Source: Desulfobacteraceae bacterium (GTDB lineage Bacteria > Desulfobacterota > Desulfobacteria > Desulfobacterales > Desulfobacteraceae). Taken from it: 64,000 nucleotides of DNA. The position numbers were made by a program, and so were the translations under genes. Shown here one piece after another: positions 9,201 to 29,268 of this stretch. The stretch's first letter is position 1; the number at the start of each line of letters is the position of its first letter. The notes under the pieces are model-generated. The model worked only from the letters and a program-made list of their open reading frames with translations. It was not told the DNA's origin and did not search any database. Location of the stretch: positions 127,652 through 191,651 of the forward strand of contig JADGEQ010000007.1 in the NCBI GenBank assembly GCA_016744295.1. The letters run 5' to 3'.

Positions 9201-10527
9201 GCATGATTCAAGCGTTGGCTATGAAACAAGGATTGAAGCTGCGGTGGGTGCCTTTACCAACCATTATAATCTTACAGAAAACAAACCCGTTCCTGTAAAT
9301 AAAAGTTTCCAGCCGGCCTATGCTTCTTCCCTGGAACAAAAAACCATCATTTTCCCCAATTGGGATCCATTTACTGGCCAATTGCTCGTGGCAACCCTCA
9401 GAAATGAGGGATATGATGCCCTGCTCATGGAAGAAACCCAGAAAACCCTTAAGCAGAGTATCCTGACAAATACGGGACAATGCATCCCACTCAATGCCAT
9501 TGGCGCGGGGTTTATTCATACGGTAAAAAAACATGGGATAGATCCGTCCCAGGCAGTTCTTTGGCTCAATCATTCCGAAATTGCCTGTAATATAAAGATG
9601 TACCCATACCATATCAACAAAATTTTTGAGCGGGAAGAAAACGGGTTTGAGCAGTCACAAATATACCAGGGAGAACTGTCATTATTTGATATCTCTTTTA
9701 AAGCATCCACAAATGCGTATTTTGCTTACATGTTTGGCGGACTTCTGAGAAGCATTGGGTGCAAAATACGACCCTATGAGGTTAACAAAGGCGAGACAGA
9801 CAAGATCCTTGCCAATGCCCTGTCCATCATCGGCGCCGCCTTCCTCACCGGAGGATCCAAGGAAAAGGCTCTGAAGGAAACCATTGCCATGGTCAAAAAA
9901 ATTCAGATCAAAAAAGACCAACCCCGTCCCAAGATTGCCATATTCGGAGATCTCTATGTAAGGGACAATGATACTATGAATCAGGATTTGGTCCATTTTA
10001 TTGAGGACAACGGGGGAGAAGTTGTTACCACCCCCTATTATAAATATGTAAAACTCATTGCCAATTCATATTTTAAAAAATGGTTCAAAGAGGGTAAATA
10101 TATGAGCCTGATTTCAAATAAAGCCCTGCTCACAGCCATGCAGGCGATGGAGAAAAAGTATTATAGATATTTTGAAACCATCCTGGATGAATCTGATATG
10201 GTGGTTACCGAATCCTATGAAACCCTTTTAGACCAATATGGAATCTTGCCTGAACACACCGGAGAATCCATGGATAATATTTTGAAAATTCACCACATCA
10301 TCAATGAGCAACCTGATCTAAGGCTTCTGGTTCAGACCAATCCGGCTTTCTGCTGTGCCGGGCTTGTGACCGAAGCCATGGCAGCCAAAATAGAGGCAAA
10401 AACAAAGATACCCATTGTCAGTATTACCTATGATGTGTCAGGCGGGAATAAAAACAAGGTGATTATTCCTTTTCTCAAATCCCCTAGAAAAGCGTCCTAT
10501 TCCCACAACAGAAAAGTTTCGGTCTGA
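6262..10527 (+). CDS. CoA-substrate-specific enzyme activase family protein: two BadF/BadG/BcrA/BcrD (HgdC-like) ATPase domains fused to a large C-terminal DUF2229-type region
   Basis: Two ASKHA ATPase modules are present (GIDVGSVSVS...NTSCAAGTGSFLDQQ...RCAVFAKTD; GLDVGSTSTKA...NTVCAAGTGSFIEEQ...RCTVFMERD). Each carries the two Cys that ligate the bridging [4Fe-4S] cluster in HgdC-type activators. A Cys-rich segment follows (CLLCTNNCKL...FLCGRDY), then about 800 aa. Confidence 0.85.
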   Translation: MNAQITQGDAILGIDVGSVSVSIAAINPAADHGTGHLFHRAAAYHHGDVKQCLYRLLSDDALKNIGYVSKTTSTPSFIFSHSNYDEQVSIIRAANHLHGNSFDGILHIGGEKFSLSLFDELGNYIGAKHNTSCAAGTGSFLDQQAGRLNIKGSEQISQQGLLNRKDRPDIATRCAVFAKTDLIHAQQEGYGIGQICDGLCFGLAKNIANTLFKQKGLINPKKGFNSKILFCGGVAKNICVKNHLESITGIDFFMDDSAQFYGAIGAALSLKDQLNQGVHEPKIFNKIDDYFKKTEQKESYRYPELALTLSDYPDFSCFKSTLAEGVEMDIYTNPKTNPNAHGFLGLDVGSTSTKAILIDPEGKPIAGFYTATASRPVSAVKKLFKACDTFLNEYHPSLEIQGCGTTGSGRRMAGKIIGADIEPDEITAHATAAVNLNKNVDTIIEIGGQDAKFTLLRDGMVTASTMNTVCAAGTGSFIEEQASKLDCPLSEYSARTEGVSSPVSSDRCTVFMERDINYFFAEGYEKNEILASVLHSVRDNYLTKVANMAKIGNTILFQGATARNKALVAAFEQKLNKPIHVSKYCHLTGALGVALLVRNKKKEMKIQQTCFRGFNLWKKDIPVRQETCLLCTNNCKLTIADIDGTPQAYGFLCGRDYATQRMVADKERYDLLRLRSGQTQLKCDTPVKHDFTIGIPASLHLFEDLEFWEHFFSNLGIQTITSKRLKNPVRLGKMTANAEFCAPVVSLHGHVSHLMEKADYVFLPFYFEEKSKEKDTRRQHCYYTQFSPSIISCLQASDQKRLISPIIQYLYTSFHTKMELYKCLKGLGEISFFDIVMAYDRAVEFKEQNKKKLLTLYQSQKKDTPGIKAVFLGRPYTILAESMNNNIPGIFSNLGIKTFFQDMLDNQNHDFTLIQPLLKELHWKHAAQILEATYIAATTQDLYPVYISSFKCSPDSFVVDYFKEIMEHFNKPYLVLELDEHDSSVGYETRIEAAVGAFTNHYNLTENKPVPVNKSFQPAYASSLEQKTIIFPNWDPFTGQLLVATLRNEGYDALLMEETQKTLKQSILTNTGQCIPLNAIGAGFIHTVKKHGIDPSQAVLWLNHSEIACNIKMYPYHINKIFEREENGFEQSQIYQGELSLFDISFKASTNAYFAYMFGGLLRSIGCKIRPYEVNKGETDKILANALSIIGAAFLTGGSKEKALKETIAMVKKIQIKKDQPRPKIAIFGDLYVRDNDTMNQDLVHFIEDNGGEVVTTPYYKYVKLIANSYFKKWFKEGKYMSLISNKALLTAMQAMEKKYYRYFETILDESDMVVTESYETLLDQYGILPEHTGESMDNILKIHHIINEQPDLRLLVQTNPAFCCAGLVTEAMAAKIEAKTKIPIVSITYDVSGGNKNKVIIPFLKSPRKASYSHNRKVSV

Positions 10528-11333
10528 CGTTTACCGGGAAGGTAGGGTTTGATGTCCGGATATTGAATTAAAAAATTATTTTGAAATTCAATTCGCTGGA
10601 CATTGAACTTATTATGGGTGTCAACAGCCCTGCGATACCTAAGATAATATTCATCATAATTTTTTAAATGTTCCCGGGTTTTTGCCTCTGTAATATTATA
10701 AAAATTGGTGTGGGTATAGGCAAGCAGGGCTTCAAAATTATCCAGATACGCCTGAAGACTTTTATAATGAAGCATAACATTCCGATCTGTGTAAAACAAT
10801 TGAATCTGGTAGACCCAATTTAAATCTTTTTTCACAAAATAAGCTTTATAATCAGTTGTAAATTTGACAAGCCGGTTTATGGATGCCTGATTTTTAGCCA
10901 TAATTATCCTGAGGGTTTGTATAAAATCGATGGTATTGCTCAGCTCCTTGATCCTTGATTCAACCTTTGAAATCAATTCAAGTTTTACCAACCCCTTGTC
11001 CAGATCAATTGTGGTTTGCTTCAGGTCATCGCTTAACCGGATAACCTGGCGGGTGATGGGAGGAAGATGGGCATATTTATTTTTTTCCCTCATGTTGGCA
11101 TATGTATAAAACTCATAGGCTGACATTGCGGTAAAGGAGGACAAAAATATCATAAATAAAATCATCCCTTCGGTCTTCCGGGATTTAAAAATAAAATAGG
11201 GTGTGGTAATGGGAGCCAGAAGAACCACGACTGCCCACCATCTAGGATGTTTTTTCCGATAGCATTCAAAAAGCATAAGACCGGACAGCAGCAAAGCATA
11301 TGGAAAATATATATAATACAAGGTTTCATTCAC
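10497..11333 (-). CDS. hypothetical membrane protein with a PLDc_N-like N-terminal membrane motif
   Basis: 278 aa with 3 N-terminal TM helices, including RWWAVVVLLAPITTPYFIF, then a helical soluble part. Its start overlaps the comEC stop by 8 nt. Its 3' end overlaps the convergent activase gene by 31 nt. Confidence 0.6.
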   Translation of the reverse strand: MNETLYYIYFPYALLLSGLMLFECYRKKHPRWWAVVVLLAPITTPYFIFKSRKTEGMILFMIFLSSFTAMSAYEFYTYANMREKNKYAHLPPITRQVIRLSDDLKQTTIDLDKGLVKLELISKVESRIKELSNTIDFIQTLRIIMAKNQASINRLVKFTTDYKAYFVKKDLNWVYQIQLFYTDRNVMLHYKSLQAYLDNFEALLAYTHTNFYNITEAKTREHLKNYDEYYLRYRRAVDTHNKFNVQRIEFQNNFLIQYPDIKPYLPGKRQTETFLLWE

Positions 11334-13791
11334 CTTTGTGGGTTAAAATGTTGTAGACAATACCATCAGAGGATATGGTAACAGCACCATTATTATCTGT
11401 CCTGAATACCTTATATCCTCTATCCTGGTATCTTTTCACGACATCCGGGTGCGGGAAACCATACTGGTTGCCAAAGCCACAGGATACTATTACACTTTCA
11501 GGGTTTACTTTATCAAGAAAAATTTTACTGCTGGATGTCAAACTGCCATGGTGGGGAGAAAGGAGAACCCTGGATTCAAGATCATTTTCCCTGGCAAGAG
11601 ACCCTTCTCTTTCCCCAAGTATGTCACCGGGAAACATCATGGAAAATTGATTAAACCGAGCCTGGAAAACCAATGAATTATTATTTAGGTTTGGGCCGGA
11701 CAGCCCGGGATCAACTTTAAAAAAGGTCAGATGGGTTTGGTTCAACCCAAGGGCCGGATCCCCATCCGAGGGGTGCCAGATTTTAATTTGCCTTTCCCGG
11801 CAAAGGGCTATCAGATAGTCATAGCTCCTGTTTGAACGGGTATCCTTATTTTTAATCAGCAAATTGACCTTAAAATTTTCAAATATATACAAAAGACCGT
11901 TCATGTGATCGGATTCCGGATGGGTCAAAATAACAGCATCCAGGCAAAGAATATTTTGGGACCACAAAAACGGTCCGACCACGTAACGGCCTATGTCAAA
12001 ACTGGACCAATCTGAAAACCCGCCGCCGTCCACCAAAATAGTTTTTCCTTCAATGGTCTGAATCAGGGCTGCGCTCCCCTGGCCCACATCCAAAATTGTA
12101 ATGGTCATACTTTTAGGGAACAATTTTGTTTTAAGCGCCATTCCAAAGCTGATAGAGCCTGCCAAAACAACCATAAACATGAGCACAAGTCCTGTCTTTT
12201 TTTGGCGCATCAGGATTAAACCGATTGCCCCCAAAAAAAGATACACCATGATCACCGCCTGGATATCAAAGCCGATGATTCTTGACCATGACAATTTAAA
12301 ACCAATTAAAAATTGGATATAACCGATACAAAAAGAGAGGATATGCTGGCAAAGGATAAGCAGAATTTCGGACAACCCAGGGCACACCACAAACAATAAA
12401 AATGCCCCAAGCCCAAGTGGCAGGCAGACAAATCCCATCAATGGCACCAATATAAAATTGGCAAATATCTGCACATAGGAAACAATATTAAAATAATGGG
12501 CAATCAGAGGAAAGGTTCCAAGCCCTGCAAAAATAGTCACCAGGGCTGGGGTGATAAAGATTGTCAAAAAATTCTTTTTGGATTTGTATCCTTGAACTCT
12601 CATCAATGAAAATCCTAGTATAATAAAAGACAAGGCACCAAAGGATAACTGAAAGGATATGGAAAACAGGGCTGTACTGTCAATGATCAAAATGAGGATA
12701 GCTGCCAGTGCCAATGAGTTCAATGGATTATTTTCCCTTTCTCCCAAAAAGGAGAACATAAAAATAGCGGTCATGACAAAGGCCCGCTGGGTGGAGGGAG
12801 AAAATCCTGAAAAGACACCATAGAAAAGCAAGGGGACCAGGGTCAGAATCCCGGCTGCTTTTTTGGCAATACCGCCAATCAGGAACATGGGAAATAGCGC
12901 CAGAAGAAAGTAAAAAAAAGAAACGAAGCCCAGGGCAACAATGGAAAGATGAAGTCCTGAAATCGCAAGGATATGGGACCCCCCTGCCCTTGAAAACGCA
13001 TCTCGTAAGGTTAAGGGAATAGCCTCTTTTTTACCGGTTACAAGGGCAACGATAATGGCTGCGGCGTTTTTGTTATCCAGCCTGTCCATGGTAAAATCAA
13101 AAAAACGATTTCTAAGTTGCTCCAGGACACGGATTGTTTTACTATAAAAACTGATGGGCTGGGGTATCACTCTGATCTTGCCGGCGTTTGCATAGGCCGA
13201 TCCGAACACCCCGGCAAATTTCATCTGTTGTTCATAATCAAATCCATTGGGATTTGAAAAATTTCGAATAGGCTTTAGAGAACTTGTAAATTGGACAAGA
13301 TCCCCATATTGAAAGTTTCCCTCTTTTTTATCATAGATATTCAGGAGTATCCGCCCTTTAACACGGGCAGGTTTCATCCCATTTTTTTCAACAAACTGGC
13401 AGGAAAGAACAACCCTGTTTTTCCGGGGATAATTTTTTGAAAAAGAGATAATTTCTCCGGTAATGGTATATCTGGATGAATCTGTAAATCTTGAGATATG
13501 CTCCAAAGGGGTATCCGGGTTCAACACCCATGAAGTTGAAAAAAAACCCCAGCCCAAGCAGATAAAACCAATACCCATAACAAATGGGTTTAATTCGCGG
13601 ATATAAAACAAACCAAAGAACGAACCGAAAAATAAAACACAGAATACCATTAGGAGGAGAAGAACAAGGGAGCAGGCAAGAAAAATCCCCAATGGCAAGC
13701 CGGGAAAAAAAGACCCGGCCAGAATGCCTGTTATCAATAGAAAAACAACAGGAATAAGCGGTGGGGAAAAATGGATTAAAGGTGTTTTCAC
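11326..13791 (-). CDS. comEC: DNA internalisation competence protein ComEC/Rec2 (with C-terminal metallo-beta-lactamase domain)
   Basis: 821 aa, polytopic, with the competence-domain block (FSRAGGSHILAISGLHL) and an MBL motif (ILTHPESDHMNG). Confidence 0.9.
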   Translation of the reverse strand: MKTPLIHFSPPLIPVVFLLITGILAGSFFPGLPLGIFLACSLVLLLLMVFCVLFFGSFFGLFYIRELNPFVMGIGFICLGWGFFSTSWVLNPDTPLEHISRFTDSSRYTITGEIISFSKNYPRKNRVVLSCQFVEKNGMKPARVKGRILLNIYDKKEGNFQYGDLVQFTSSLKPIRNFSNPNGFDYEQQMKFAGVFGSAYANAGKIRVIPQPISFYSKTIRVLEQLRNRFFDFTMDRLDNKNAAAIIVALVTGKKEAIPLTLRDAFSRAGGSHILAISGLHLSIVALGFVSFFYFLLALFPMFLIGGIAKKAAGILTLVPLLFYGVFSGFSPSTQRAFVMTAIFMFSFLGERENNPLNSLALAAILILIIDSTALFSISFQLSFGALSFIILGFSLMRVQGYKSKKNFLTIFITPALVTIFAGLGTFPLIAHYFNIVSYVQIFANFILVPLMGFVCLPLGLGAFLLFVVCPGLSEILLILCQHILSFCIGYIQFLIGFKLSWSRIIGFDIQAVIMVYLFLGAIGLILMRQKKTGLVLMFMVVLAGSISFGMALKTKLFPKSMTITILDVGQGSAALIQTIEGKTILVDGGGFSDWSSFDIGRYVVGPFLWSQNILCLDAVILTHPESDHMNGLLYIFENFKVNLLIKNKDTRSNRSYDYLIALCRERQIKIWHPSDGDPALGLNQTHLTFFKVDPGLSGPNLNNNSLVFQARFNQFSMMFPGDILGEREGSLARENDLESRVLLSPHHGSLTSSSKIFLDKVNPESVIVSCGFGNQYGFPHPDVVKRYQDRGYKVFRTDNNGAVTISSDGIVYNILTHKGE

Positions 13792-16248: not shown

Positions 16249-16950
16249 GTGAAGGAATATGACATCGCTGGTGTGCAAAATGACAAAGAGACTTTTTATT
16301 CTAAATTTTCCCAGCGTTATGCTGAAGTATCCCATCAATTTTTACAATCCATTTATACCACTTCATCCCATCCCGGACTCAAAAGCGACACAGATCTTCT
16401 CACCCGCCTAAAACAATTATCCCCAGGGAAAAAAGGCCTTGATGCGGGTTGCGGTGCCGGGGCCAGAGATGTTTATTCCCTATGGGAAGAAGGATATGAC
16501 ATGTGGGGAGTTGACGCGGTAAAAGAAAATATTGAGCTTGTAAGTGAACTCCATCCGGAAATCAAAAATAATGTTTTTGTACATAATTTAGCAGAAAAGC
16601 TACCGTTTAAAGATAATTCCTTTGATTTTACCATGTGTAATGCGGTTATCCAGCACATTGACCCAGAGGATGTCTATGGAACAACCATTCCGGAACTCGC
16701 CCGGGTAACTCGCCCTAACGGCGTCTTGCAACTAATGTTTAAAAGCGGGACCGGAATTGACGCAATTTATGATAAAGACTATGGGGTTCAACGGCATTTT
16801 CTGCTGTATGAACCCGACCAGGTCCTGTTAAGTGCCCAGGCCAACGGCTTATCTCTTATCCAACAGGAGGAAGGTGCTCTTGGGGGAATCATGTCCTTTG
16901 TAGACCCCAAAGGCTCGACCCACACAACCATGTTTCTTGGTAAAGAATAG
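16249..16950 (+). CDS. class I SAM-dependent methyltransferase (GTG start)
   Basis: 233 aa with motif I GLDAGCGAGARD and a Methyltransf_11-like post-I pattern. AGGAG RBS upstream. Confidence 0.8.
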   Translation: MKEYDIAGVQNDKETFYSKFSQRYAEVSHQFLQSIYTTSSHPGLKSDTDLLTRLKQLSPGKKGLDAGCGAGARDVYSLWEEGYDMWGVDAVKENIELVSELHPEIKNNVFVHNLAEKLPFKDNSFDFTMCNAVIQHIDPEDVYGTTIPELARVTRPNGVLQLMFKSGTGIDAIYDKDYGVQRHFLLYEPDQVLLSAQANGLSLIQQEEGALGGIMSFVDPKGSTHTTMFLGKE

Positions 16951-17476
16951 AAAATTACAGCCAGTTTAGAATTATTTATAACCTTTCTTAGAAACCCTTA
17001 ATCCCGGATACGTAATCATCCCATCCGTGGGATGGATGATGTTGGCTGGGATTATTATCAACAATCCGGCTGCTCAAAGGAAAACGCTCTCCTTTTATTT
17101 GGCCGGGCATCCCAGCATCGAAATTAACAGCCCGCATTCCCCATTGGTGTTCTAGGTTCAACAATTTTCATACTAAATGTGATGGTTTTGTGGCAGTATC
17201 GCTTCTCAAATCAGTCCATTTCATAGTATTTATTTTCCATTTGTATTGCAGGTGATGGGTTCAGGTTAAACTCTTCATATCATACTTTGGCGGTGTTACA
17301 CAAAAAGTTGATAGCAGTTTGTCCTTTTTAAAAGCCTGTATTCAAATACTAAAATTTGGTATCATATATCCCCAAGTTTGGGGTTGACACGATATCTTGA
17401 ATATACTAAGAATCCAGGTATTGAGTATTCTGAAGGATACTAAAGTAAGTAATTTAAGATGATATAGAAACCAAAA

Positions 17477-17527
17477 GGCCATGAAGGCTTGCAGATAAGA
17501 ATCTGCAAACCTTCATGGCCTTTTTTT
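17477..17527 (+). terminator. strong intrinsic terminator / attenuator hairpin in the leader of the uptake operon
   Basis: GGCCATGAAGGCTTGCAGAT (17477-17496), loop AAGA, ATCTGCAAACCTTCATGGCC (17501-17520). This is 19 of 20 bp paired (one C-A mismatch), followed by T7 (17521-27). It ends 16 nt before the permease ATG. Confidence 0.6.
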
Positions 17528-17542
17528 ATTGGGTTGAAAGTT

Positions 17543-18583
17543 ATGAAATATAAAAAAAAAGTGTTGAATATCAATGGATGGGCATTACTTGCTTTGCTGG
17601 GAATGATACTTTTTGTGGCGGCATTTTTATGTATGGGAAGAGGGGCGTGCCAGATCAGTTTTCCCTTGGTTATTAAAACCATATCTTCCCACCTGTTTTC
17701 CCTTCCGGATCTATCCTCAATTTCCAACCTTCATCATACCATTATCTGGAATATCCGACTGCCCAGAACTCTTTTGGCCATTTTGGTCGGGATTTGCCTG
17801 GCCACCTCGGGCACGGTTTTTCAAGGATGTTTTAAAAATCCTCTGGTTGAACCCTATATTCTTGGGATTTCTTCGGGAGCCGCTTTCGGGGCGGCATTGG
17901 GAATTGTTTTCCCTTCTTTTTTTTTGTCGGTTCAGGTGCTGGCTTTTTTTTTCGGATTTCTGGCGGTGGCCATTGCCTGTGGAATGGCCCGTGTGAAGGG
18001 GCAAACTCCAGTGGTCACCCTTGTTCTGGCCGGTATCATCACCGGGTCCATCTTTGGTTCGTTGGTGGGGATACTAAAATATGTGGCCCAGGATTCGGCG
18101 TTGCGCGAGATTGTATTCTGGCTCATGGGTGGCTTTTATTATGCCGGATGGCGGGATTTGGCCCTGCTTTTTCCCATCACCCTGGCAAGTTTTCTGATCA
18201 TCTGGATTTGCGGGTGGAAGATAAATGTGCTGTCCATGGGAGAACAGGAAGCCAGAAGTATGGGGATTAACCCTGAAAAAAGCAAGCTGATACTGATTTG
18301 TCTTGCAACACTGATGACGGCTGCTGCGGTCTCTTTTGTGGGGATCATCGCCTGGGTGGGTCTGATGATTCCCCATGCAACCCGGATGATCACAGGGCCG
18401 GACCATCGTATGGTCATCCCGGCCTCGGCACTGCTGGGGGCAACCTATCTGGTGGTTTGTGATACCATTGCAAGAACCCTTACCGATGCAGAGATCCCCG
18501 TTGGTATCATTACATCCCTTGTGGGGGCTCCCTATCTTTTTTATTTGATCAGAAGCCGGGGACAAAGACTGTTAGGAGGGTAA
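17543..18583 (+). CDS. FecCD/BtuC-family ABC permease (iron-chelate / corrinoid type)
   Basis: The ORF is open from 17489, but that extension runs through the terminator hairpin. The likely start is MKYKKKVLNINGWALLALLG (ATG 17543). Conserved FecCD blocks are present (RLPRTLLAILVGICLATSGTVFQ, NPLVEPYILGISSGAA, IPVGIITSLVGAPYFLYLI-like C-terminus). Confidence 0.9.
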   Translation: MKYKKKVLNINGWALLALLGMILFVAAFLCMGRGACQISFPLVIKTISSHLFSLPDLSSISNLHHTIIWNIRLPRTLLAILVGICLATSGTVFQGCFKNPLVEPYILGISSGAAFGAALGIVFPSFFLSVQVLAFFFGFLAVAIACGMARVKGQTPVVTLVLAGIITGSIFGSLVGILKYVAQDSALREIVFWLMGGFYYAGWRDLALLFPITLASFLIIWICGWKINVLSMGEQEARSMGINPEKSKLILICLATLMTAAAVSFVGIIAWVGLMIPHATRMITGPDHRMVIPASALLGATYLVVCDTIARTLTDAEIPVGIITSLVGAPYLFYLIRSRGQRLLGG

Positions 18584-18586
18584 TAA

Positions 18587-19420
18587 ATGCTGTTGGTTGA
18601 AAATTTAAGTTTCGGATACGGCAGGACAAAGGTGTTGAATGATATCAGTTTTGGTCTGGGGCAAGGAGAACTTTGCGGGCTTTTCGGTCCCAATGGGTCC
18701 GGCAAGACAACCCTTTTCAAGTGTTGTCTGAAATTTCTTTGTCCCGATATGGGCCGCATTTGTTTTAACGGTCAGAATATAAAACAGATGAAAACACGGC
18801 AGATGGCACAGCAGGTTGCCTATGTGCCCCAGAGTCATACACCTCCCTTTCCCTTTCGGGTGGAAGAGATGGTTCTCATGGGAAGGACCCCCCATATGAA
18901 CCGGTTTTATCTGTCGAGTAGCAGGGACAGGAAACTGGCTGCCCGGGCCATGGAACTCATCCATATTTCCCATCTTGCCCGGGAACCCTATGATATTCTT
19001 TCCGGCGGTCAGCAGCAAATGGTGCTCATTGCCAGGGCAATTGCCCAGGATACAGACCTGATATTTTTAGATGAACCAACCTCGGCACTGGATTTTAAAA
19101 ATCAGGTTACCATATGGAAAACCTTGAGGAAAATTGCCGACCAGGGCATTGGTATTCTGGCTTGCAGCCATGATCCCAACCATGTGGCATGGTTCTGCGA
19201 TACCACCGTGGTGCTGGGACCGGCAGGAATGCTTGCCAAGGGAGATCCCAAAGAAGTGATTTCCCAAAACCTGATGGACACCATTTATCCCAATACCTGT
19301 CAGGTGATGGATAATAAAAATTTTAAAATGGTGGTTCCCAGCGACTTGGACAGGAACCCGGTTAAGGTTGTAAAATTTCCATTGAACCCAAAAAGAGGAA
19401 AACTATATGGAATACACTAG
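18587..19420 (+). CDS. ABC transporter ATP-binding protein (FepC/BtuD type)
   Basis: Walker A GPNGSGKTT, signature LSGGQQQMVLIARAI, Walker [13 protein letters not shown]. Confidence 0.9.
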   Translation: MLLVENLSFGYGRTKVLNDISFGLGQGELCGLFGPNGSGKTTLFKCCLKFLCPDMGRICFNGQNIKQMKTRQMAQQVAYVPQSHTPPFPFRVEEMVLMGRTPHMNRFYLSSSRDRKLAARAMELIHISHLAREPYDILSGGQQQMVLIARAIAQDTDLIFLDEPTSALDFKNQVTIWKTLRKIADQGIGILACSHDPNHVAWFCDTTVVLGPAGMLAKGDPKEVISQNLMDTIYPNTCQVMDNKNFKMVVPSDLDRNPVKVVKFPLNPKRGKLYGIH

Positions 19421-20282
19421 GTTAAATTGTAATGAGGTAAATTGGAATGATGAATGGAAACATGAGATGGATCTTTGGCAAAACTCCTCGGGCAAGAGCT
19501 GTAAAGAGTTTTGGGCAGATAAAAAATCTGCGGCGGTTTATTCCCGTGAGCATGTGGAACACCATCAAAAGCGGATCGATAAAACCCTTGAGGGACTTGT
19601 TCTTACCCCCCGCACCCGGGTATTGGATATAGGGGCCGGTCCCGGAAATTTAGCCGTCCCCATGGCAAAACGTGTCCAGAGTGTTACCACCATTGAGCCT
19701 TCAGCCGGAATGAATGCGGTAATGAAAGGGTGCATTGAACGGCAGAAGGTGAAAAATATCATCCCCATTGAGAAAACCTGGGAAGCGGTGGACCCGGATC
19801 TGGACCTTACACCTCCCTATGATCTGGTCATTGCCTCAATGTCCCTTGGGATGCGGGATATCCGGGAGGCCATTGAAAAAATGAATCAGGTGTGCCGTGG
19901 GGAGGTGACCCTGTTCTGGCATGCCGGTATTCCCGGATGGGAAGATATGCCCAAAACACTATGGCCTCAATTATTCGGAACAAAATATCACGGGGGTCCC
20001 AAGAGTGATCTTTTGTTCCAGGTGCTCTACCAGATGGGGATCTATCCTCAGATTGAGGTGTTTCCCAGCCATTTTCATGAAGTTTTTGTGTCAATGGACG
20101 CGGCCTTAACTTTTTATTGCAAACGATTTGACCAGATTCAACCCGTCCATCACCCCATGATTCAATCCTATCTTGAGGAAAAATGCGTAAAAACCCAGGA
20201 GGGATTTGTCCATGGGTTTGATCATATTGCCATGAAGTTTTCCTGGAAAAGCAAAGGAGCTTTCCATGAAAAAGCGGCTTAA
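19407..20282 (+). CDS. class I SAM-dependent methyltransferase embedded in the uptake operon
   Basis: 291 aa with motif I VLDIGAGPGNLAVPMA. It overlaps the ATPase gene by 14 nt and the binding-protein gene by 17 nt. Confidence 0.75.
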   Translation: MEYTRLNCNEVNWNDEWKHEMDLWQNSSGKSCKEFWADKKSAAVYSREHVEHHQKRIDKTLEGLVLTPRTRVLDIGAGPGNLAVPMAKRVQSVTTIEPSAGMNAVMKGCIERQKVKNIIPIEKTWEAVDPDLDLTPPYDLVIASMSLGMRDIREAIEKMNQVCRGEVTLFWHAGIPGWEDMPKTLWPQLFGTKYHGGPKSDLLFQVLYQMGIYPQIEVFPSHFHEVFVSMDAALTFYCKRFDQIQPVHHPMIQSYLEEKCVKTQEGFVHGFDHIAMKFSWKSKGAFHEKAA

Positions 20283-21450
20283 TCTTTGGGTGATGGGGGT
20301 TGTTTTGCTGTGGACAACCTTTTGTTTTGCCCAGGCCCTTGCTGGGGTTGTGGTAACAGATTCCAGGGGTAAATCCATTGAGATTCCCCAGTCTGTTTCC
20401 AGAGTTGTCACCATCAGTGATGGCATGATTGAAGCGGTGATGACCCGGCTGGGAGTGGTGGATAAAATTGTCGGACTAGGATCCAGCTGTATTCCGAAAA
20501 CCTGGGCATACTCATACCCCACCATGGGAAGCCTCACCCATGAGTACCGTGACGGGATGAATCCGGTCACCTATTTGAATCCCGGGCTGGTGAAGCTGCC
20601 CCTGGTGTCAAAATTTGGCGCTGGCATTAATTATGAGAAGGTGGTCGCTCTGGATCCGGACCTGATACTGATCCGTACGGGGTCTTGTTCCCTTTGTACG
20701 GGGGAGGATATCCTTGAAAAAAGTATTTTTTTGCTGGAGTCCTTAGGGATCCCCCTGGTGGTCCTCAAGGGGCCGGATACCTTTGACTCCCCGGATATGG
20801 TTACCATCAGTAATGAAATTTTATTGTTGGGACAGGTGTTTCAACAGCCGGAAGAGGCGGGCAAACTTTCCGATTATCTTGAAAACTGTGTTGAGATGAT
20901 CCGGGAACGCACCGCCGATATTCCACCAGCCCAGCAAAAGAAGCTGCTGCTGCTGGGGCTTTCTCCAAACGCCAGAAGCCAGGGTGGGGCCGGTCATGTC
21001 AAAGGATTAGATACCATTCAGACCTATTTTCTGGATCATTTTGTCCATGCAAAAAATGCCTATGACGGCAGTGGGGCATGGAATATCCTGAATACGGAGC
21101 AACTGCTTTCCCTGGACCCCGATGTCATTGTTCTGGTAACTGCCTGGGGATATCATCCCCCTGTGGAGTTGTATGAAGCCCCCTATTATCAGAGTTTAAA
21201 AGATATGAAGGCAATTGCAAACAAAGCGGTTTCCGCCCTGCCCTGGACACCGTGCAATTGTGAAAAAAGACTGGAGTATCCCATTGATGTCATGGTCATG
21301 GCCAAAACAGCCTATCCGGAACGCTTTAAAGATATTCACCTTGGGCAATGGCTGTTAAACTTTTATCAAAACGTGTACCAGGTGGATGTGAAAACCGCCA
21401 AAGAACTCAGGTCCTGCCAGTGGATGGATTGGGCCTGTGAGGAGCAATAA
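20266..21450 (+). CDS. periplasmic substrate-binding protein, cluster-A/type 8 (iron-siderophore / cobalamin family)
   Basis: 394 aa with a signal peptide (MKKRLNLWVMGVVLLWTTFCFAQALAG), then a typical ...VTDSRGKSIEIPQSVSRVVTIS... beginning and the LDPDLILI block. Confidence 0.85.
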   Translation: MKKRLNLWVMGVVLLWTTFCFAQALAGVVVTDSRGKSIEIPQSVSRVVTISDGMIEAVMTRLGVVDKIVGLGSSCIPKTWAYSYPTMGSLTHEYRDGMNPVTYLNPGLVKLPLVSKFGAGINYEKVVALDPDLILIRTGSCSLCTGEDILEKSIFLLESLGIPLVVLKGPDTFDSPDMVTISNEILLLGQVFQQPEEAGKLSDYLENCVEMIRERTADIPPAQQKKLLLLGLSPNARSQGGAGHVKGLDTIQTYFLDHFVHAKNAYDGSGAWNILNTEQLLSLDPDVIVLVTAWGYHPPVELYEAPYYQSLKDMKAIANKAVSALPWTPCNCEKRLEYPIDVMVMAKTAYPERFKDIHLGQWLLNFYQNVYQVDVKTAKELRSCQWMDWACEEQ

Positions 21451-22104
21451 ATGGAATCTTGTGAAACCCATGCTGCCCGAAAAGCCTTTTTCAATGAAAG
21501 GGCGGATACCTGGCTGGATAAATTGTATAAAAATCCGGATACCGGTGACCATGACCGGTATTCAGAACAGATTAAAACAATTATTGCCCCCCTGAATATC
21601 AAACCGGGGGACCATGTTCTGGATCTGGGATGCGGCAGCGGGGTGCTGGTTCCTTATTTGTTGCGGTATCTTGGCGATGCCGGGCGGTTGTTTGAAATGG
21701 ATTATGCTGAAAAGATGATCGCCCAGAACCAGAAAATTCATGGGGACAACAAAATCACCTTTGTTTGCTCCGATGTCATGGACATGCCCTTTAAAGCCGA
21801 TTTTTTTGATTCAATCGTCTGTTTTGCCTGTTTCCCTCATTTTGAAAACAAGGGGGCTGCATTGGAAAAAATGGCCGGCAGTTTAAAGCAAAACCATCCC
21901 CTGATAATATCCCATCTCATGTCTTCACATGAGATTGCCGGTCACCACAGCAGCGAAACCGCTGTTGCACGAGACCAGCTGCCAACCAGAAGCGAGATGG
22001 AAGATTTTTGTGAAGAAAGCAACTTGTTGATCACCAAATTTATAGATGAACCCGGATTTTATTTTTTATCGGCGAAAAAAAAAGGTGCGCTTAATTTAGG
22101 TTGA
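21451..22104 (+). CDS. class I SAM-dependent methyltransferase (Methyltransf_11-like), second one in the operon
   Basis: 217 aa with motif I VLDLGCGSGVLVPYL and post-I FEMDYAEKM. Its ATG abuts the binding-protein stop (TAAATG). Confidence 0.8.
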   Translation: MESCETHAARKAFFNERADTWLDKLYKNPDTGDHDRYSEQIKTIIAPLNIKPGDHVLDLGCGSGVLVPYLLRYLGDAGRLFEMDYAEKMIAQNQKIHGDNKITFVCSDVMDMPFKADFFDSIVCFACFPHFENKGAALEKMAGSLKQNHPLIISHLMSSHEIAGHHSSETAVARDQLPTRSEMEDFCEESNLLITKFIDEPGFYFLSAKKKGALNLG

Positions 22105-22325: not shown

Positions 22326-24443
22326 ATGACTGTATTTAAGTTACTATATGGCCTGGGAATTATGCTTGCCTGCACTCTTTTGTGTCATCCCATGACGGCA
22401 ATTGCCGGCCAGTCAGATGGCCCGGCAGAGGTCCAAAAAGATTCTCCGGTTGTGGACCTGGGGGAAATGACGGTCATGGCAGCCCAGCCAGGGGTTGAGA
22501 TCACAACGGAAAAGACGGTGATCACCCTGGATAAGTTTGTTAAACCCGGTTCCTTGACAACGGTGACCGATGTTCTTTCGGAGATCGGAGGGGTGGATGT
22601 CCAACGGGCAAACGCTTTGATGGCAAGCCCCGGGGATGAGGTTTCCATCCGGGGGCTCAATGAGGGACGGATGGTCATCGAGATCGACGGGAGGCGGATC
22701 AACCAGACCGGTCATATGGGGCGATATATTGTGGACTGGTCCACCCTGACCCTGGATGATGTGGACCGGATTGAGATTATCAGGGGAGGGCATTCCGTGC
22801 TTCACCCCTTTGCCATTGGCGGGGTGATCAATATCATTACCAAAAAGGGCAGTAAAACCCAAGAAACCAAGGGCAGTGTTCGTGCAGGATATGGCCGGTA
22901 TAACAGCTGGAACACTGCGGCATCGGTTGATGGCAGTATCGGTAAATATACGGATTTTCATTTTTCCGGGGCCAACCAGGAGAGTGACGGATATTTAAAA
23001 AATAATTTTCAGAAAACCCAGTCCGTTAACGCACATCTAAACATTCATCTGCCCAGCCAAGCAAGTTTTGATCTGGGCGTGAAACACTCCCGAGTCGAGT
23101 ATGGAATGCCCGTTATCAATGATCCCAATGATCCCAATCCAAATGTTGCCGCACTCTATGATTCTGATTACCCCATATTTTCAAGGACCAGTGATCAGCT
23201 GCGGCACTTGAATTGGGCCCAGCTGCCGGGGGAGGATACACCAGAATGGGAAAAAAAAACCACCTACCTGGATGCCATTTTCCGGGTGCCGGTGGGGCCC
23301 GGCACCCTAAAAATTCATGGGTTCATGACCGATGGGCGAAGGTGGACAAGCCTTTACGGGAAAAACGGAGAATTTACCCGGGATGAATTCATGGATGACA
23401 GAACCCAGGGGGTGATCCTTGAATACGGTGATGTCCGTCTTTTTGACAACCATTTGTTTACCTTTGGGATGGAATATCAGGAGCTGGGACAGCCTTCGGG
23501 AACCCGGGCTATTTATAATGTTAAATCAGGATATGTACAAGATATCATCACCCTGGGGTCCAAGTGGACTCTGATCCCCGGGGTCCGATACTATCAGGTG
23601 GACAAAGCCACTTACTACTCCTGGACTGAAATGGGGTATGGGGCCATGCCGCCGGGATGGCCGTTCAGTGTCAGCAATTCAGGGAAAACAGAGACAGACT
23701 CAGATTTTTTCCCCAGCCTGAGAGTGGATTATAAACTTAACCAGGATACCACCCTTTATGCTGCTGCCAGCCGGTCCTACCGGCTGCCCTGTCCCTGAGA
23801 TTATTATTGGTGGGCGCGGTGCGCCTCAGAAACAAATACCTCCCTTGATCCTGAAACGGCAGATGAATATGAAATAGGTGTGATTCACAATATAGGCAAC
23901 TGGGTCAGTCTCAGGGCTTCAACCTGGTATTATGATATCAAAAACTTTATCAATGACAACGGTATTACAGCTCCCGGATCCGGTGCTGGTTCCAATTGCC
24001 TGTACAATATTGACAACCTTGAACTGTATGGGGTTGAGCTGGAAACCGCCTTTCAATTTACCCGCAAATTCAGGGCCACCGCATCCTATGTGTTTCAGGA
24101 ATACAAAGTGAGCCAGACAGGCTATGAGCAGGACTGGAGCTATTATCTGCCGGCCACCCTTCCCAAACACAAGGTGAAGTTGATGGGAAAATATGAAATT
24201 ATCCCAGAGGGCTGGCTTCAGCTAAGCGCAAAATATGTTGGCGCCCGGGGCGCCCAAAAAGGGAGCGAGTTAGATGCCTATGTTGTCTGCGATGCCGGTT
24301 TTGAAAAAAAATTCAAGTATGGCGGTCAGGCCTATTCCATGAATCTTTTTGTGAATAATTTTACGGGAACTAATTATCAAGAGATCAGCGGATATACCAT
24401 GCCAAAATATGTGTGGGGGTTGATGATGGGCATTGAGTTTTAA
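22326..24443 (+). CDS. TonB-dependent outer-membrane receptor, 705 codons, interrupted by one in-frame TGA at 23796-23798 (selenocysteine candidate or nonsense pseudogene)
   Basis: Track ORFs 22326..23798 and 23880..24443 are in the same frame. The 27 codons between them (DYYWWARCASETNTSLDPETADEYEIG) are stop-free and continue the barrel. Signal peptide, TonB-box-like LGEMTVMA, plug domain (VSIRGL...IEIIRGGHSVL), and a C-terminal ...GLMMGIEF with terminal Phe are all present. Confidence 0.8.
23810..23827 (+). promoter_or_regulatory. SECIS-like hairpin downstream of the in-frame TGA
   Basis: GGGCGC (23812-17), loop GGT (23818-20), GCGCCT (23821-26). T23811 is unpaired, and G23810 can pair with C23827. 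Confidence 0.35.
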
Positions 24444-24732: not shown

Positions 24733-25626
24733 ATGATTCTTGTTATAGGCGAAATACTCTTTGATCTGTTTGGCGACAACAAAAAGTTAGGTGGGGCACC
24801 CTTTAACTTTGCCTTTCATTTGAAGAAAATGGGATTTCCAGTCCGGTTTGTTTCCCGGGTGGGCAAGGATACGCTTGGCAGGGAAATTTTATATTTTTTA
24901 AAGCAGCATCAATTTGATTTATCCGATATTCAAACAGATCCGGATCATGATACCGGTACGGTTACGGTGACCATGTCCCATGAAAGTCACACGTTTACCA
25001 TAACACCGGATACGGCTTGGGCCCATCTTGCCTTTGACAGGAGGCTTTCATCCCTTTTAAAGCAATCTTGCGATCTTCTTTATTTTGGTAGCCTTATCCA
25101 GCACAGCAAAACGGGAATGGCCCTGATTCAAAAGGTAATGGGCCAAAAACAATCAGGGACAACGGTTTTTTGTGATCTTAATCTACGCCCGGGATTCTAT
25201 GACCCTGGGGGTATCAATGCGGTCCTCAGGGCTTCGGATATCCTTAAATTGAGCAGGGAAGAATGGCTGGAAATCCCAGGCATGAGCGGTGGTGAAACAC
25301 TGAACAGGGAAACCATGGGCCCGTTCATGGCAGCCCATGACCTTGAATTGATTGTTTTGACGCTTGGAAGTCTTGGCAGTCAATGGATTACCCGTAAAAA
25401 AAACCATTTTCACCCCCCTCATTCACTGGAAAAGGTTGTGGATACAGTCGGCGCAGGGGATGCCTATGCCGCCCTATCCGCAGCCGGATGGCTGGAAAAG
25501 CTGCCCATTGAAACCATCATGAACCTTGCCAGTGAATTTGCAGGGCACATTTGCGGGATCAAAGGGGCGTTGCCGGAAGATGATCGTATCTATAATGATT
25601 TCAGACTGAGGATACAAAAAAAATGA
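24733..25626 (+). CDS. PfkB-family carbohydrate kinase (fructokinase-like)
   Basis: 297 aa with an N-terminal IGEILFDLF...GGAPFNFAFH and a C-terminal DTVGAGDAYAA motif. Confidence 0.85.
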   Translation: MILVIGEILFDLFGDNKKLGGAPFNFAFHLKKMGFPVRFVSRVGKDTLGREILYFLKQHQFDLSDIQTDPDHDTGTVTVTMSHESHTFTITPDTAWAHLAFDRRLSSLLKQSCDLLYFGSLIQHSKTGMALIQKVMGQKQSGTTVFCDLNLRPGFYDPGGINAVLRASDILKLSREEWLEIPGMSGGETLNRETMGPFMAAHDLELIVLTLGSLGSQWITRKKNHFHPPHSLEKVVDTVGAGDAYAALSAAGWLEKLPIETIMNLASEFAGHICGIKGALPEDDRIYNDFRLRIQKK

Positions 25627-27830
25627 AGCCCGGGAAAGGTCTATATATCCAAATGTTCAGCATCCACGGACTGGTTCGGGCCAAAAACATGGCACTGGGA
25701 TATGACGCAGACACCGGCGGTCAGATAAAATATGTGGTGGAATTGTGCAAAACTCTGTCTGCCAGTGATCAGATCCGAAAAATAGATTTGTTCACACGGC
25801 TGATCAAGGATAAATCCTATTCCGATGATTATGGACAGCCCATGGAACAGGTGAATGAAAAGTTCCGTATTTTACGGATTCAGTGCGGAGGGAAAAAGTA
25901 TATTCGCAAAGAATTGCTCTGGCCCCATTTGGACGAATTTGTGGATAAAACCATTATTTTTATCCGGCAGGAAAAAGATATTCCGGATATAGTGCACGGC
26001 CACTATCCGGACGCAGGGCATGTGGCCATGGAGCTGGGAAGTTTCTTTGGTGTTCCCCTGGTTTATACCGGGCATTCCCTTGGCCGGTCCAAGCGAGCAC
26101 GGCTACAGGAGGATGGACAGGATCTTCACGAGATGAATCGAAAATTAAAAATTGATCATCGGATTGATACCGAGGAACATATTCTTAAATCCGCAGACCG
26201 GGTCATTGCCAGCACCCGCCAGGAAATTGAAGGTCAATACGGGATGTACCGAAACCGAACTCTGCCGACCTATAGGGTCATACCACCGGGCATCGGCATT
26301 GAGCGGTTTTATCCCTATTACCATGACACCTTTTCCAGCAGCAGGGAAGAAGAAGAGGCGCTGTATGCAAAGGCATCTGTGGTCCAGGAATTAAATCGAT
26401 TTTTTACCCACCCGGACAAACCGTTGATTCTGGTTCTCTGTCGTCCGGACAAACGGAAAAATATCCAGGGACTGGTAAAAGCCTATGGTGAAGATGCTGA
26501 ACTTCAGGCCATGGCCAACCTTGCCGTATTTGCCGGTATCCGGAAAGATATCTCCGATAAAGAAGAAACAGAGCGGAATGTTCTTACGCGAATGCTGTTG
26601 TTAATGGACAAGTACAATCTATATGGAAAAATGGCCATTCCCAAGAAACATGATTTTGAACACGAGGTCCCTGAACTATACCGGATTGCTGCTGAGAAAC
26701 GGGGCGTATTTGTTAACCCTGCGCTGACAGAACCCTTTGGATTGACCCTGCTGGAAGCGCTGGCCTGCGGTCTGCCCATTGTTACCACCAATGATGGCGG
26801 TCCAAGGGATATTGTTCACAACTGCAAGACAGGCACCCTGGTGGATCCCACAAACACGGTTGAAATGGCTTCTGCCATCAAGGATATCATTGTTCACCCG
26901 GACAAGTGGAATCAATTCTCAAAAAACGGCATCCTGAATACCCGAAAATTTTACTCCTGGGCAAGTCATGCCAAATCCTATTGCACGGAAATGAAAGAAA
27001 TTTGCCGCAAATATGAAAAATCCTTTATCACTGCAATAGAACCAAAACAGAGCATTGGCAAACGGCTGGCAAAACTTGATCATATGCTGATCACCGATAT
27101 TGACAACACCCTTTTAGGAGGAAATCTGGAAGAACGCCATCGGCTAATGGATTTGATTAAAAAAAACGCAGGGAAGATAGGGTTTGGTGTGGCCACGGGA
27201 AGAACATTTGAGTCTGCCCTGGATATTCTTAATATTCACGGGATAAAGATGCCGGATATTATTGTTTCCGGGGTGGGCAGCCGGATCAGTTATGGTGAAT
27301 CCCTAAATCATGACAAGGGGTGGGAAACCCATATTTCAAAAAACTGGGACCCAAACCTAATTGCACACCGGCTTAAAGAGCTTGATTTTATTCATCCCCA
27401 GGAAGCAAGTGCTCAAACGGCTTATAAACTCAGTTATACCATGGCACCGGGAAAGGACCAGCTGGCCAGGATTCACCACGTATTGACCCAAAACAGATTC
27501 AAGTATACCCTGATCTATTCCCAGGACCAGCATTTGGATATCTTGCCCTACAGGGCCTCAAAGGGAAAAGCCATTCGGTACCTGAGCTATAAATGGGGCC
27601 TTCCTTTGAAAAACATCCTGGTATGCGGCGATTCAGGGAATGATGCAGAAATGCTAAAAGGTGAATCCTTGGGGGTTGTGGTGGGAAATTACAGTCCTGA
27701 GCTTGAAATGCTCAGATCTGCGAAACAGATATATTTTGCAAAAAAATTCCATGCCGGCGGCATGATGGAGGGTATCCTTTATTATCAATTTATCCAGAAA
27801 GCAAAGGGAATAATGTCCGATGACAATTAA
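25623..27830 (+). CDS. sucrose-phosphate synthase (GT4 glycosyltransferase) fused to an SPP-like HAD domain
   Basis: 735 aa with an N-terminal SIHGLVR...GYDADTGGQIKYVVEL block, the GT-B motif EPFGLTLLEA, and a C-terminal HAD DxDxT motif (ITDIDNTLLG) and GDSGND. ATGA overlap with the kinase gene. Confidence 0.85.
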   Translation: MKPGKGLYIQMFSIHGLVRAKNMALGYDADTGGQIKYVVELCKTLSASDQIRKIDLFTRLIKDKSYSDDYGQPMEQVNEKFRILRIQCGGKKYIRKELLWPHLDEFVDKTIIFIRQEKDIPDIVHGHYPDAGHVAMELGSFFGVPLVYTGHSLGRSKRARLQEDGQDLHEMNRKLKIDHRIDTEEHILKSADRVIASTRQEIEGQYGMYRNRTLPTYRVIPPGIGIERFYPYYHDTFSSSREEEEALYAKASVVQELNRFFTHPDKPLILVLCRPDKRKNIQGLVKAYGEDAELQAMANLAVFAGIRKDISDKEETERNVLTRMLLLMDKYNLYGKMAIPKKHDFEHEVPELYRIAAEKRGVFVNPALTEPFGLTLLEALACGLPIVTTNDGGPRDIVHNCKTGTLVDPTNTVEMASAIKDIIVHPDKWNQFSKNGILNTRKFYSWASHAKSYCTEMKEICRKYEKSFITAIEPKQSIGKRLAKLDHMLITDIDNTLLGGNLEERHRLMDLIKKNAGKIGFGVATGRTFESALDILNIHGIKMPDIIVSGVGSRISYGESLNHDKGWETHISKNWDPNLIAHRLKELDFIHPQEASAQTAYKLSYTMAPGKDQLARIHHVLTQNRFKYTLIYSQDQHLDILPYRASKGKAIRYLSYKWGLPLKNILVCGDSGNDAEMLKGESLGVVVGNYSPELEMLRSAKQIYFAKKFHAGGMMEGILYYQFIQKAKGIMSDDN

Positions 27831-29268
27831 AAATAAAATTCAATTGATTACCTATCCTGACAGTTTCGGTGCCAACCTGCCCGAGCTGCATTATGCATTA
27901 CGCAAATATTTTTTGAAGGCCATTGGCGGGGTTCACCTGCTTCCCTTTTATCCCTCCTCTTCAGACAGGGGATTTGCCCCCTTAACCTATGATGAAGTGG
28001 ACCCTGCATTCGGCACCTGGGAAGATGTGGAAAAGATCGGCAAGGATTTTGATCTGATCATTGATTTTATGGTCAATCACATCTCGCGCCAGTCTGTTTT
28101 CTTCCAGGACTATATTGCAAAAGGGCCTGACAGCGAATATGCAGATATGTTCCTAAGTTTTGATAAACTTGCCCCCAATGGCTGGGTAAAGGATGAGGAC
28201 CTGGAAAAAGTTTACACCCGAAAACCCCGGCCGCCCTATCAGACATTGGAACGGCCCAATGGTACCCTGGAAAAAATATGGTGTACCTTTGATCATGAAC
28301 AAATCGATCTGGATTATAATTCCCCCAAAACCCGGGAAATTATGCGTAAATTTTTGATCCGGTTGGTCAGAAATCGCCCTAAAATGATCCGGCTGGATGC
28401 CATTGCCTATACCACCATAAAACTGGGTACCAATTGTTTTTTTCTGGAACCCAAGATCTGGGAATTGCTGGAGTGGTTCGACGATTATGCAACAGCCTTT
28501 GACACCCAAATCCTGCCGGAAGTGCATGAACATTATTCATACCAGTTAAAACTTTCGGCAAAAGGATACTGGTGCTACGACTTTGCCCTGCCCATGCTGG
28601 TTCTTCATGCCCTGTATATGGGGAAAACCCGGACGTTAAAGTCCTGGATGAAAAAATGCCCCAGAAAACAGATCACAACCCTGGATACCCACGACGGAAT
28701 CGGTGTGGTGGATGTAGACGGTTTGTTGAATCCGGATGAAATTGATCAAACCATAAAAAAATTATATAAAAAAGGCTCCAATGTAAAAGAATCATATTCC
28801 GGACCCGATTATCAGAACCTGGATATTTATCAGGTAAATTGTACCTATTATTCTGCTTTGGGATGTAATGATGACGCCTATATTGCTGCCAGAACCATCC
28901 AGTTTTTTTCACCCGGAGTCCCCCAGGTATATTATGTGGGACTGCTGGCAGGTGAGAATGATATTGAACTGCTGGAAAAAACAAAATTGGGCAGAAATAT
29001 CAACCGCCATAATTATACATTGGAAGAAATTCGGGAAGATATTAAAAAACCTGTAGTGCAAAGACTTTTAAAACTCATGGAATTTCGGAACTCTTATCCT
29101 GCATTTAATGGGGATTTTAACTTGTTTAAATCCAAGAACACGGAGTTGAATTTAGAGTGGACCCATAAAAAACATATTGCCACCGCCTACATCAATGTGA
29201 AATCCTATGAGACAAGAATTACCTATACGGATCCTGTTGCTTCTCGAATTGTCAATTTTGAGGTTTAA
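27820..29268 (+). CDS. sucrose phosphorylase family (GH13_18) enzyme
   Basis: 482 aa: IQLITYPDSFG...GGVHLLPFYPSSSDRGFAPLTYDEVDPAFGTWEDV...DFMVNHIS, RLDAIAY, LDTHDGIGV. Confidence 0.8.
   Translation: MTIKNKIQLITYPDSFGANLPELHYALRKYFLKAIGGVHLLPFYPSSSDRGFAPLTYDEVDPAFGTWEDVEKIGKDFDLIIDFMVNHISRQSVFFQDYIAKGPDSEYADMFLSFDKLAPNGWVKDEDLEKVYTRKPRPPYQTLERPNGTLEKIWCTFDHEQIDLDYNSPKTREIMRKFLIRLVRNRPKMIRLDAIAYTTIKLGTNCFFLEPKIWELLEWFDDYATAFDTQILPEVHEHYSYQLKLSAKGYWCYDFALPMLVLHALYMGKTRTLKSWMKKCPRKQITTLDTHDGIGVVDVDGLLNPDEIDQTIKKLYKKGSNVKESYSGPDYQNLDIYQVNCTYYSALGCNDDAYIAARTIQFFSPGVPQVYYVGLLAGENDIELLEKTKLGRNINRHNYTLEEIREDIKKPVVQRLLKLMEFRNSYPAFNGDFNLFKSKNTELNLEWTHKKHIATAYINVKSYETRITYTDPVASRIVNFEV

Follow-up and report, generated by a model that had tools for sequence, protein, structure and literature searches.

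A stretch of 64,000 nucleotides (nt) from a Desulfobacteraceae bacterium (contig JADGEQ010000007.1, positions 127,652 to 191,651; hereafter the window) carries a TonB-dependent receptor gene that is interrupted by one in-frame TGA (nt 23796–23798). On comparison with homologous sequences, this codon almost certainly encodes selenocysteine (Sec) in an intact gene. An earlier note on the same DNA had raised this possibility, and it is now backed by the conservation of the TGA among homologues, by a downstream hairpin that agrees with the consensus of the bacterial Sec insertion sequence (SECIS), by a Cys at the same column in the distant relative P0138 and by a match above cutoff to the NCBIfam model NF049947. 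We hold it to be very likely that Sec is inserted at UGA 23796–23798 in a SelB-dependent manner through the hairpin at about nt 23809–23828 and that Sec491 forms, together with the neighbouring Cys residues, a surface-exposed selenol/thiol site.

One receptor gene of the PCPU family

Two open reading frames (ORFs), nt 22326–23798 (490 amino acids, aa) and nt 23880–24443 (187 aa), share one frame on the plus strand, and translation of the joined frame (nt 22326–24443) is interrupted solely by the TGA at nt 23796–23798. The 27 codons lying between the two ORFs read DYYWWARCASETNTSLDPETADEYEIG, with no second stop, and the TGA itself is found in the context ...SRSYRLPCP-TGA-DYYWWARCASETNTSLDPETADEYEIGV..., in which ...YRLPCP-TGA-DYYWW (nt 23781–23813) makes up a Pro-Cys-Pro-Sec motif with in-frame TGA, matching the PCPU type described below. 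The barrel domain was matched by Pfam as a single stretch spanning the TGA without a break, the PDB sequence matches YncD/PqqU likewise align across it, and the joined 705-aa product ends in Phe. The product is a complete TonB-dependent receptor, with plug, barrel and C-terminal aromatic residue; the proposal of a 705-codon receptor split only by this TGA was thus confirmed by translation and by Pfam. The features of the gene are as follows.

nt 22326–24443, plus strand: complete receptor gene of 705 codons, including one predicted Sec codon, with the terminal TAA at nt 24441–24443 (translation, Pfam, NCBIfam)
nt 22326–22409, plus strand: predicted signal peptide, approximately residues 1–28, MTVFKLL...TAIAG (by eye from the translation, no predictor)
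nt 22455–22481, plus strand: TonB-box-like segment DLGEMTVMA, residues 44–52 (by eye from the translation)
nt 22497–22826, plus strand: Plug domain, residues 58–167 (Pfam PF07715, 53.6 bits)
nt 23064–24359, plus strand: beta-barrel domain TonB_dep_Rec_b-barrel, residues 247–678 (Pfam PF00593, 130 bits)
nt 23790–23792, plus strand: codon TGT of Cys489, first residue of the Cys-Pro-Sec motif (alignments)
nt 23796–23798, plus strand: UGA predicted to be read as selenocysteine, residue 491 (conserved TGA in homologues)
nt 23809–23828, plus strand: SECIS-like hairpin, with stem 23812–23817 paired to 23821–23826, loop GGU 23818–23820 and unpaired U 23811 (consensus, conservation)
nt 23820–23822, plus strand: codon TGC of Cys499, eight residues past Sec and within the hairpin (invariant Cys)
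nt 23997–23999, plus strand: codon TGC of Cys558, mapped to extracellular loop L8 (invariant in the full-length alignment; model of relative P0129)

In the full-length alignment the (E/V)(I/M)TV(M/I)A core of the TonB-box-like segment is conserved, and DLGEMTVMA probably represents the TonB box. Cys489 is invariant both in the 11-sequence full-length alignment and in all the 17 sequences aligned around the site, with its codon divided between TGT (7) and TGC (10), a variation that indicates constraint at the protein level. The downstream Cys, which the earlier note had placed nine residues past the TGA, is actually eight residues away (Cys499); 16 of 17 loci encode it by TGC, the lone TGT (locus L017) accompanying a CGG to CAG change.

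A scan of the NCBIfam models with the joined protein, in which Cys was put in place of Sec, matched NF049947 ('TonB-dependent receptor, PCPU motif-type') at 1183.2 bits against a cutoff of 800 (E = 0), residues 18–705 aligning with positions 9–685 of the 685 of the profile. NCBIfam holds four models of Sec motif-type TonB-dependent receptors, and the other three scored below their cutoffs, namely NF049944 (PUIUD motif-type; 460.7 bits, cutoff 850), NF049946 (CU motif-type; 422 bits, cutoff 700) and NF049945 (FCYXU motif-type; 223.2 bits, cutoff 825). By sequence, the receptor is a member of the already curated family NF049947, with which it shares the same Pro-Cys-Pro-Sec motif and from which no difference was found, and its novelty is accordingly low. 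By score, NF049944 and NF049946 are the nearest sister models. The motif names, together with the LPGCCD of P0138, suggest that Sec may occupy the same loop position before a conserved Asp in the PUIUD and CU types as well, with a different Sec/Cys arrangement (two Sec in PUIUD, adjacent Cys-Sec in CU).

A Sec codon in an outer-membrane beta-barrel, regarded in the earlier note as unprecedented, does have precedents. Besides the four NCBIfam models, deep-Sep predicted in 2025 that Desulfosarcina sp. BuS5 has a TonB-dependent receptor with Sec (PMC12013277), and a 2026 review lists this receptor as NF049945 'FCYXU motif-type' along with a further beta-barrel selenoprotein of the outer membrane, which belongs to the MtrB/PioB family (PMC13188914). 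The BuS5 protein (COG1629) resembles the window receptor in being a computationally predicted TonB-dependent receptor with an in-frame UGA, and its host is a sulfate-reducing member of the Desulfobacterales; both TGA-containing and Cys-containing homologues were reported for it (PMC12013277). It belongs, however, to another subfamily, with a CxxU motif (F-C-Y-x-U) instead of the CxU (P-C-P-U) of the window receptor. A literature search combining 'PCPU' with 'selenoprotein' found no paper describing the PCPU type, nor was experimental work on NF049947 found, the family existing as a curated annotation model. It is therefore a family recognised by curators and experimentally uncharacterised, for which cultured carriers exist.

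Public databases split more than 100 PCPU-type receptors into two entries, with about 480 aa in the N-terminal part and about 190 aa in the remaining fragment. The split entries include P0006, P0013, P0054, P0208 and P0235, with names such as Desulfobacter latus, Desulfonema magnum and Desulfatiglans 'TonB-dependent receptor (fragment)'. This two-protein deposition is a systematic mis-annotation: the window locus should be annotated as one gene, not as a truncated receptor plus a fragment, and the same mis-call affects more than 100 public homologues, including those of the cultured strains Desulfobacter latus and Desulfonema magnum.

Conservation of the TGA, the downstream codons and the hairpin

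The joined sequence was searched against 5.8 billion protein clusters, resulting in 584 matches, the best 120 of which were examined. These share 49–100% identity with the window receptor, every one is just 421–544 residues long, and in 116 of them, with about 470–490 aa, the terminus falls exactly at ...RLPCP. As for the four exceptions, two stop before the motif (P0024 being labelled 'partial' by its source), one is frameshifted, with the stretch TGA-GAC-TAC-TAC-TGG-TGG translated in another frame, and one is a PCG variant.

Homologous DNA was then collected from genome and metagenome collections, where single-protein queries gave 8 and 6 relevant loci, and by assembly look-ups, yielding 17 distinct loci with 47–94% aa identity to the window. 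Named sources include Desulfobacteraceae OB14 (94% similarity to the window receptor), Desulfobacula (86%), Desulfobacterium, Desulfocicer vacuolatum DSM 3385, Desulfospira, Desulfonema magnum and Desulfobacca (metagenome-assembled genomes). The orthologue alignment that had been proposed in the earlier note turned out clearly: the codon at the Sec position is TGA in all 17 loci, never TAA or TAG, and is followed by a conserved hairpin. In each locus the frame continues past the TGA for 212–215 codons and closes with a C-terminal Phe or Tyr. The ratio of nonsynonymous to synonymous substitution rates (dN/dS, Nei-Gojobori) was 0.07–0.13 over the 214 downstream codons, 0–0.19 over the 27 codons preceding the first possible restart and 0.08–0.17 over 300 upstream codons. 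As judged from these sequence comparisons, the 214 codons past the TGA are under purifying selection equal to that on the upstream part. The C-terminal fragments called by gene finders begin at scattered points (130–204 aa) and thus share no internal start.

Of the 17 distinct loci, 15 end the receptor gene with TAA, one with TGA and one with TAG, compared with TGA in 11 of the 36 window genes; this preference for TAA may mean that a further UGA is disfavoured in messages that decode Sec. The stops of the 36 window genes are TAA (18), TGA (11) and TAG (7), and a Code-4-like reassignment of UGA was rejected on the grounds that TGA acts as a stop in the 11 genes.

The hairpin noticed previously, GGGCGC (nt 23812–23817)/GGT/GCGCCT (nt 23821–23826), is indeed present and, counting the U of UGA as 1, has its unpaired T at position 16 and the loop GGU at 23–25. 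The consensus of the bacterial SECIS (PMC13188914, legend of Fig 2A) comprises a loop of 3–9 nt with at least one G in its first two positions, an upper stem of 4–16 bp, 16–37 nt from UGA to loop and a minimum free energy of at most -7.5 kcal/mol. With a loop of 3 nt (GG first), a stem of 6 bp, a spacing of 19 nt from the UGA and a free energy of -8.7 to -9.2 kcal/mol, the window hairpin falls within every one of these published ranges.

Conservation in this region seems to go beyond what the protein demands. Across the 17 loci, 23 of the 45 nt from the UGA onwards are invariant, including U16–C22, G24–G26, G28 and C29. The 115 invariant aa columns with degenerate codons have a mean codon entropy of 1.21 bits, and just one of them, Ala+6 (GCG, located in the stem), uses a single codon in all sequences, while at the invariant residues R-5, L-4, P-3, C-2, D+1 and Y+2 the synonymous sites vary freely. 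Since the synonymous sites are frozen in the stem and free in its neighbours, the pattern points to a constraint on the hairpin at the RNA level, on top of that on the protein.

Two pairing registers were distinguished. In register A, found where C is at +30, as in the window, G17–C22 pair with G26–U31 and the loop is GGU; in register B, with G at +30, G17–G23 pair with C27–C33 and the loop is GUG. In either case, the apical loop holds G24 and U25. Locus L017 (nt 4438–4497), which has the variant Pro-Cys-Gly-Sec followed by DYYFWAQCAS, carries the changes CGG to CAG and TGC to TGT, replacing G23-C27 by A23-U27, a compensatory exchange in register B. Overall, 86–88% of the cells pair in either register, and the observed score was reached by 34 of 500 shuffles.

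The SECIS of E. coli fdhF is similarly an intragenic hairpin just past the UGA, whose small apical loop exposes G and U some 20 nt from that codon, and in one of its registers the window hairpin has, like fdhF, a single unpaired U 5' of the stem. The two are, however, unrelated in sequence, the window loop is of 3 nt (GGU or GUG) instead of 4, and the register in the window is ambiguous.

Decoding of the UGA

The earlier note leaned towards a recent nonsense mutation, and a pseudogene of this kind, or a TGA due to sequencing error, would account for a lone stop in an otherwise intact gene and for the two ORFs given by public gene calls. It does not account for the recurrence of TGA at this codon in every one of the 17 independent loci, with identities as low as 47%, and of the same terminus in 116 of 120 homologues, nor for a downstream frame that is intact and selected over 214 codons. 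These loci, at 47–94% identity and in different genera, are not copies of one assembly sequence, and it is not credible that each lineage acquired the mutation, or each assembly the error, independently. We therefore attach next to no probability to this explanation. The note had also invoked several other decayed genes in the window. This does not hold for TGA interruptions, as a scan of the window for ORF pairs split only by TGA retrieved no other convincing selenoprotein or interrupted gene, the remaining pairs being all antisense to, or inside, larger ORFs; frameshifts lie outside the reach of such a scan.

A conserved UGA might also be decoded otherwise than as Sec. It could be an intended termination with a separate C-terminal third (a split barrel), or it could be read through by a near-cognate tRNA (Trp, Cys or Arg) under stimulation by the hairpin. 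Separate initiation is at odds with the selection acting on the 27 codons from the UGA to the first possible start (dN/dS as above) and with the lack of a conserved internal start, and a barrel cut after strand 13 would not close, according to the strand count of the P0129 model. Together, these sequence data argue strongly against a deliberately split gene. Decoding by a near-cognate tRNA, and non-Sec decoding in general, would be in keeping with the thin covariation of the hairpin, with the lack of a Cys-form among close relatives, and with Sec being known here from sequence and the sel genes having been surveyed within the 64-kb window. On the other side, the hairpin position and its G/U loop fit the bacterial SECIS consensus, the UGA stands in a Cys-x-UGA context beside further invariant Cys, Cys stands opposite Sec in the distant relative P0138, the family is modelled as a selenoprotein by NCBI curators, and the clade is a known Sec user (PMC8318568): SelA, SelB, SelD and tRNA-Sec are reported from Desulfobacula-related bacteria, one reconstructed genome of which has 34 putative selenoproteins (PMC8318568). 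Taken together, we regard a conserved UGA with a meaning other than Sec as quite improbable.

Several observations nevertheless weigh against decoding of the UGA as Sec, or against parts of the picture built on it. A Cys-form of the receptor was absent from the 120 N-terminal and 78 C-terminal matches and from the representative library at 47% identity or more. Pro or Met, in RFPT-x-P-E or RLPTAME, stands at the Sec column of most of the distant full-length relatives. A Pfam survey and a tRNA search found no selA, selB, selD or tRNA-Sec within the 64-kb window. About 2% of all the TGA trinucleotides in the window precede a hairpin passing the same simple SECIS filter, and the hairpin is small, the fold of nt 23796–23860, which the earlier note had proposed to inspect, being no more stable than shuffled sequences (z = 0.2). 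Covariation is thin, with one compensatory pair in one sequence (L017), and the palindromic GCGC allows two registers, so that structures slid by two columns pair almost equally well. Finally, the loop assignment given below is taken from the model of a relative with 32% identity, and the metal or redox role of the Sec cluster is one that we infer. Given the z value and the 2% chance rate, the hairpin is not significant by itself, its significance lying in its conservation across homologues, and a match to the SECIS consensus has to be seen as necessary, not sufficient.

All the 78 matches to the C-terminal part are fragments, and among 1.84 billion cluster representatives no full-length relative exceeds 35% identity across the aligned portion of the C-terminal third. 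BLASTP aligns LPGCCD of one distant relative, P0138 (668 aa, 26% identity, E = 5e-27), with LPCPUD without a gap, so that a Cys faces Sec. The only tRNA in the window is a tRNA-Leu; at the Rfam gathering threshold one tRNA was the only hit in all, with no riboswitch or known element near the receptor gene.

Returning to Sec as the preferred reading, we infer both a SelB-dependent insertion and a role for the inserted residue. The hairpin, starting 13–16 nt past the UGA, would act as a bacterial SECIS element, its apical loop presenting G and U at +24/+25; it would recruit SelB with Sec-tRNA(Sec), and the ribosome would then insert Sec and translate the remaining 214 codons.

Probable location of the predicted Sec residue and gene neighbourhood

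The position of the residue was approached through a full-length relative, P0129 (32% identity), modelled by AlphaFold from an alignment of 35 full-length relatives (mean predicted local distance difference test score, pLDDT, 84; predicted template modelling score, pTM, 0.84). Foldseek matched this model to PqqU, YncD, FoxA, FecA and OprC, that is, to the TonB-dependent transporter fold. It has 13 barrel strands before the Sec site and 9 after it, in keeping with a 22-strand barrel, and past the site connections of 2–4 residues alternate with loops of 13–20 residues. The long connection between strands 13 and 14, along with this alternation of turns and loops, places the site in extracellular loop L7. 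In the model, Cys489-Pro-Sec491 would thus lie at the start of L7, at the N-terminal end of a short helix, while pairwise alignment to P0129 would put Cys499 later in L7 and Cys558 in L8. Such a predicted position, on an outer-membrane transporter and in a loop facing outwards, is unusual for Sec, which usually occurs in cytoplasmic redox enzymes. The sole disulfide of E. coli FepA, C487–C494, presumably lies in the equivalent loop, which offers a lead and not a test.

Beyond the Cys-Pro-Sec motif, Cys499 and Cys558 are invariant across the family, so that four conserved chalcogen residues are predicted on the outer face of the barrel.

The most likely role that we can propose for these residues is that Cys489-Pro-Sec491, Cys499 (L7) and Cys558 (L8) form a cluster of selenol and thiol groups at the barrel face that binds the ligand. 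The cluster might bind a soft metal or a metal-chelate substrate, or might form a redox-switchable selenylsulfide, and the substrate would be handed on to the adjacent BtuCDF-like importer of the ATP-binding cassette (ABC) type. A more specific version, in which the cell-surface cluster of Sec491 with Cys489, Cys499 and Cys558 directly captures, in sulfidic sediment, a soft metal or a substrate of the metal-tetrapyrrole/corrinoid type, or gates the channel by a reversible selenylsulfide, is put forward tentatively and we consider it rather doubtful. If true, the receptor would have an extracellular-facing Sec acting in catalysis or as a ligand, a role without a characterised example. OprC, the copper transporter of Pseudomonas aeruginosa (PDB 6fok, 6z8q and others), is a structural match of the P0129 model (TM score of about 0.72) and is a TonB-dependent transporter that binds its metal ion directly via Cys, Met and His side chains. 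At about 14% identity, without Sec and with a metal site not known to correspond to L7, it provides an analogy that can be only suggestive.

Upstream of the receptor, a co-oriented gene cluster was identified by Pfam and NCBIfam.

nt 16249–22104, plus strand: methyltransferase, BtuC/FecCD-type permease, ABC ATPase, methyltransferase, periplasmic binding protein, methyltransferase

The three methyltransferases, of the class I S-adenosylmethionine-dependent type, are interleaved with a BtuCDF/FecCDE-type importer whose binding protein has a Peripla_BP_2 domain. None of the neighbouring genes reaches an NCBIfam cutoff, the sub-cutoff similarities of the methyltransferases being to the DVU_1556 family, CpaM (corrinoid-protein-associated), ArsM and TehB. 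In L001–L005, the genomic loci closest to the window, the receptor is preceded by the same genes in the same order from the permease to the third methyltransferase, and the 3-kb upstream flank of L011 and L012 gave matches to the last three of them (second methyltransferase, binding protein, third methyltransferase). For the first methyltransferase (nt 16249–16950), none of the fetched loci gave a match.

A second context was observed in the distant members L018–L026 (e.g., L023, nt 6007–13335), consisting of ExbB, ExbD, TonB, the receptor, a TP_methylase, a DUF4198 protein and an amino-acid permease; the TP_methylase-fold protein (about 316 aa) is precorrin-4 methyltransferase-like, below cutoff. 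Methyltransferases thus accompany the receptor in either context. Their recurrence, taken with the BtuCDF-like importer, is a hint at a metal-chelate or corrinoid-like substrate, and, in the more specific version of the cluster's role given above, the accompanying methyltransferases would modify the imported substrate.

Downstream of the receptor, nt 24733–29268 (plus strand) encode a PfkB-family sugar kinase, a 735-aa fusion of a sucrose-phosphate-synthase-like glycosyltransferase with a sucrose-6F-phosphate phosphohydrolase, and an alpha-amylase-family protein. The region looks like a module for sucrose synthesis and turnover in a presumed sulfate reducer; its PfkB and sucrose-phosphate synthase genes had no match in any fetched locus. 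Elsewhere in the window, a 1421-aa ORF (nt 6262–10527, plus strand) with BcrAD_BadFG ATPase domains and DUF2229 encodes a CoA-enzyme-activase-type protein.

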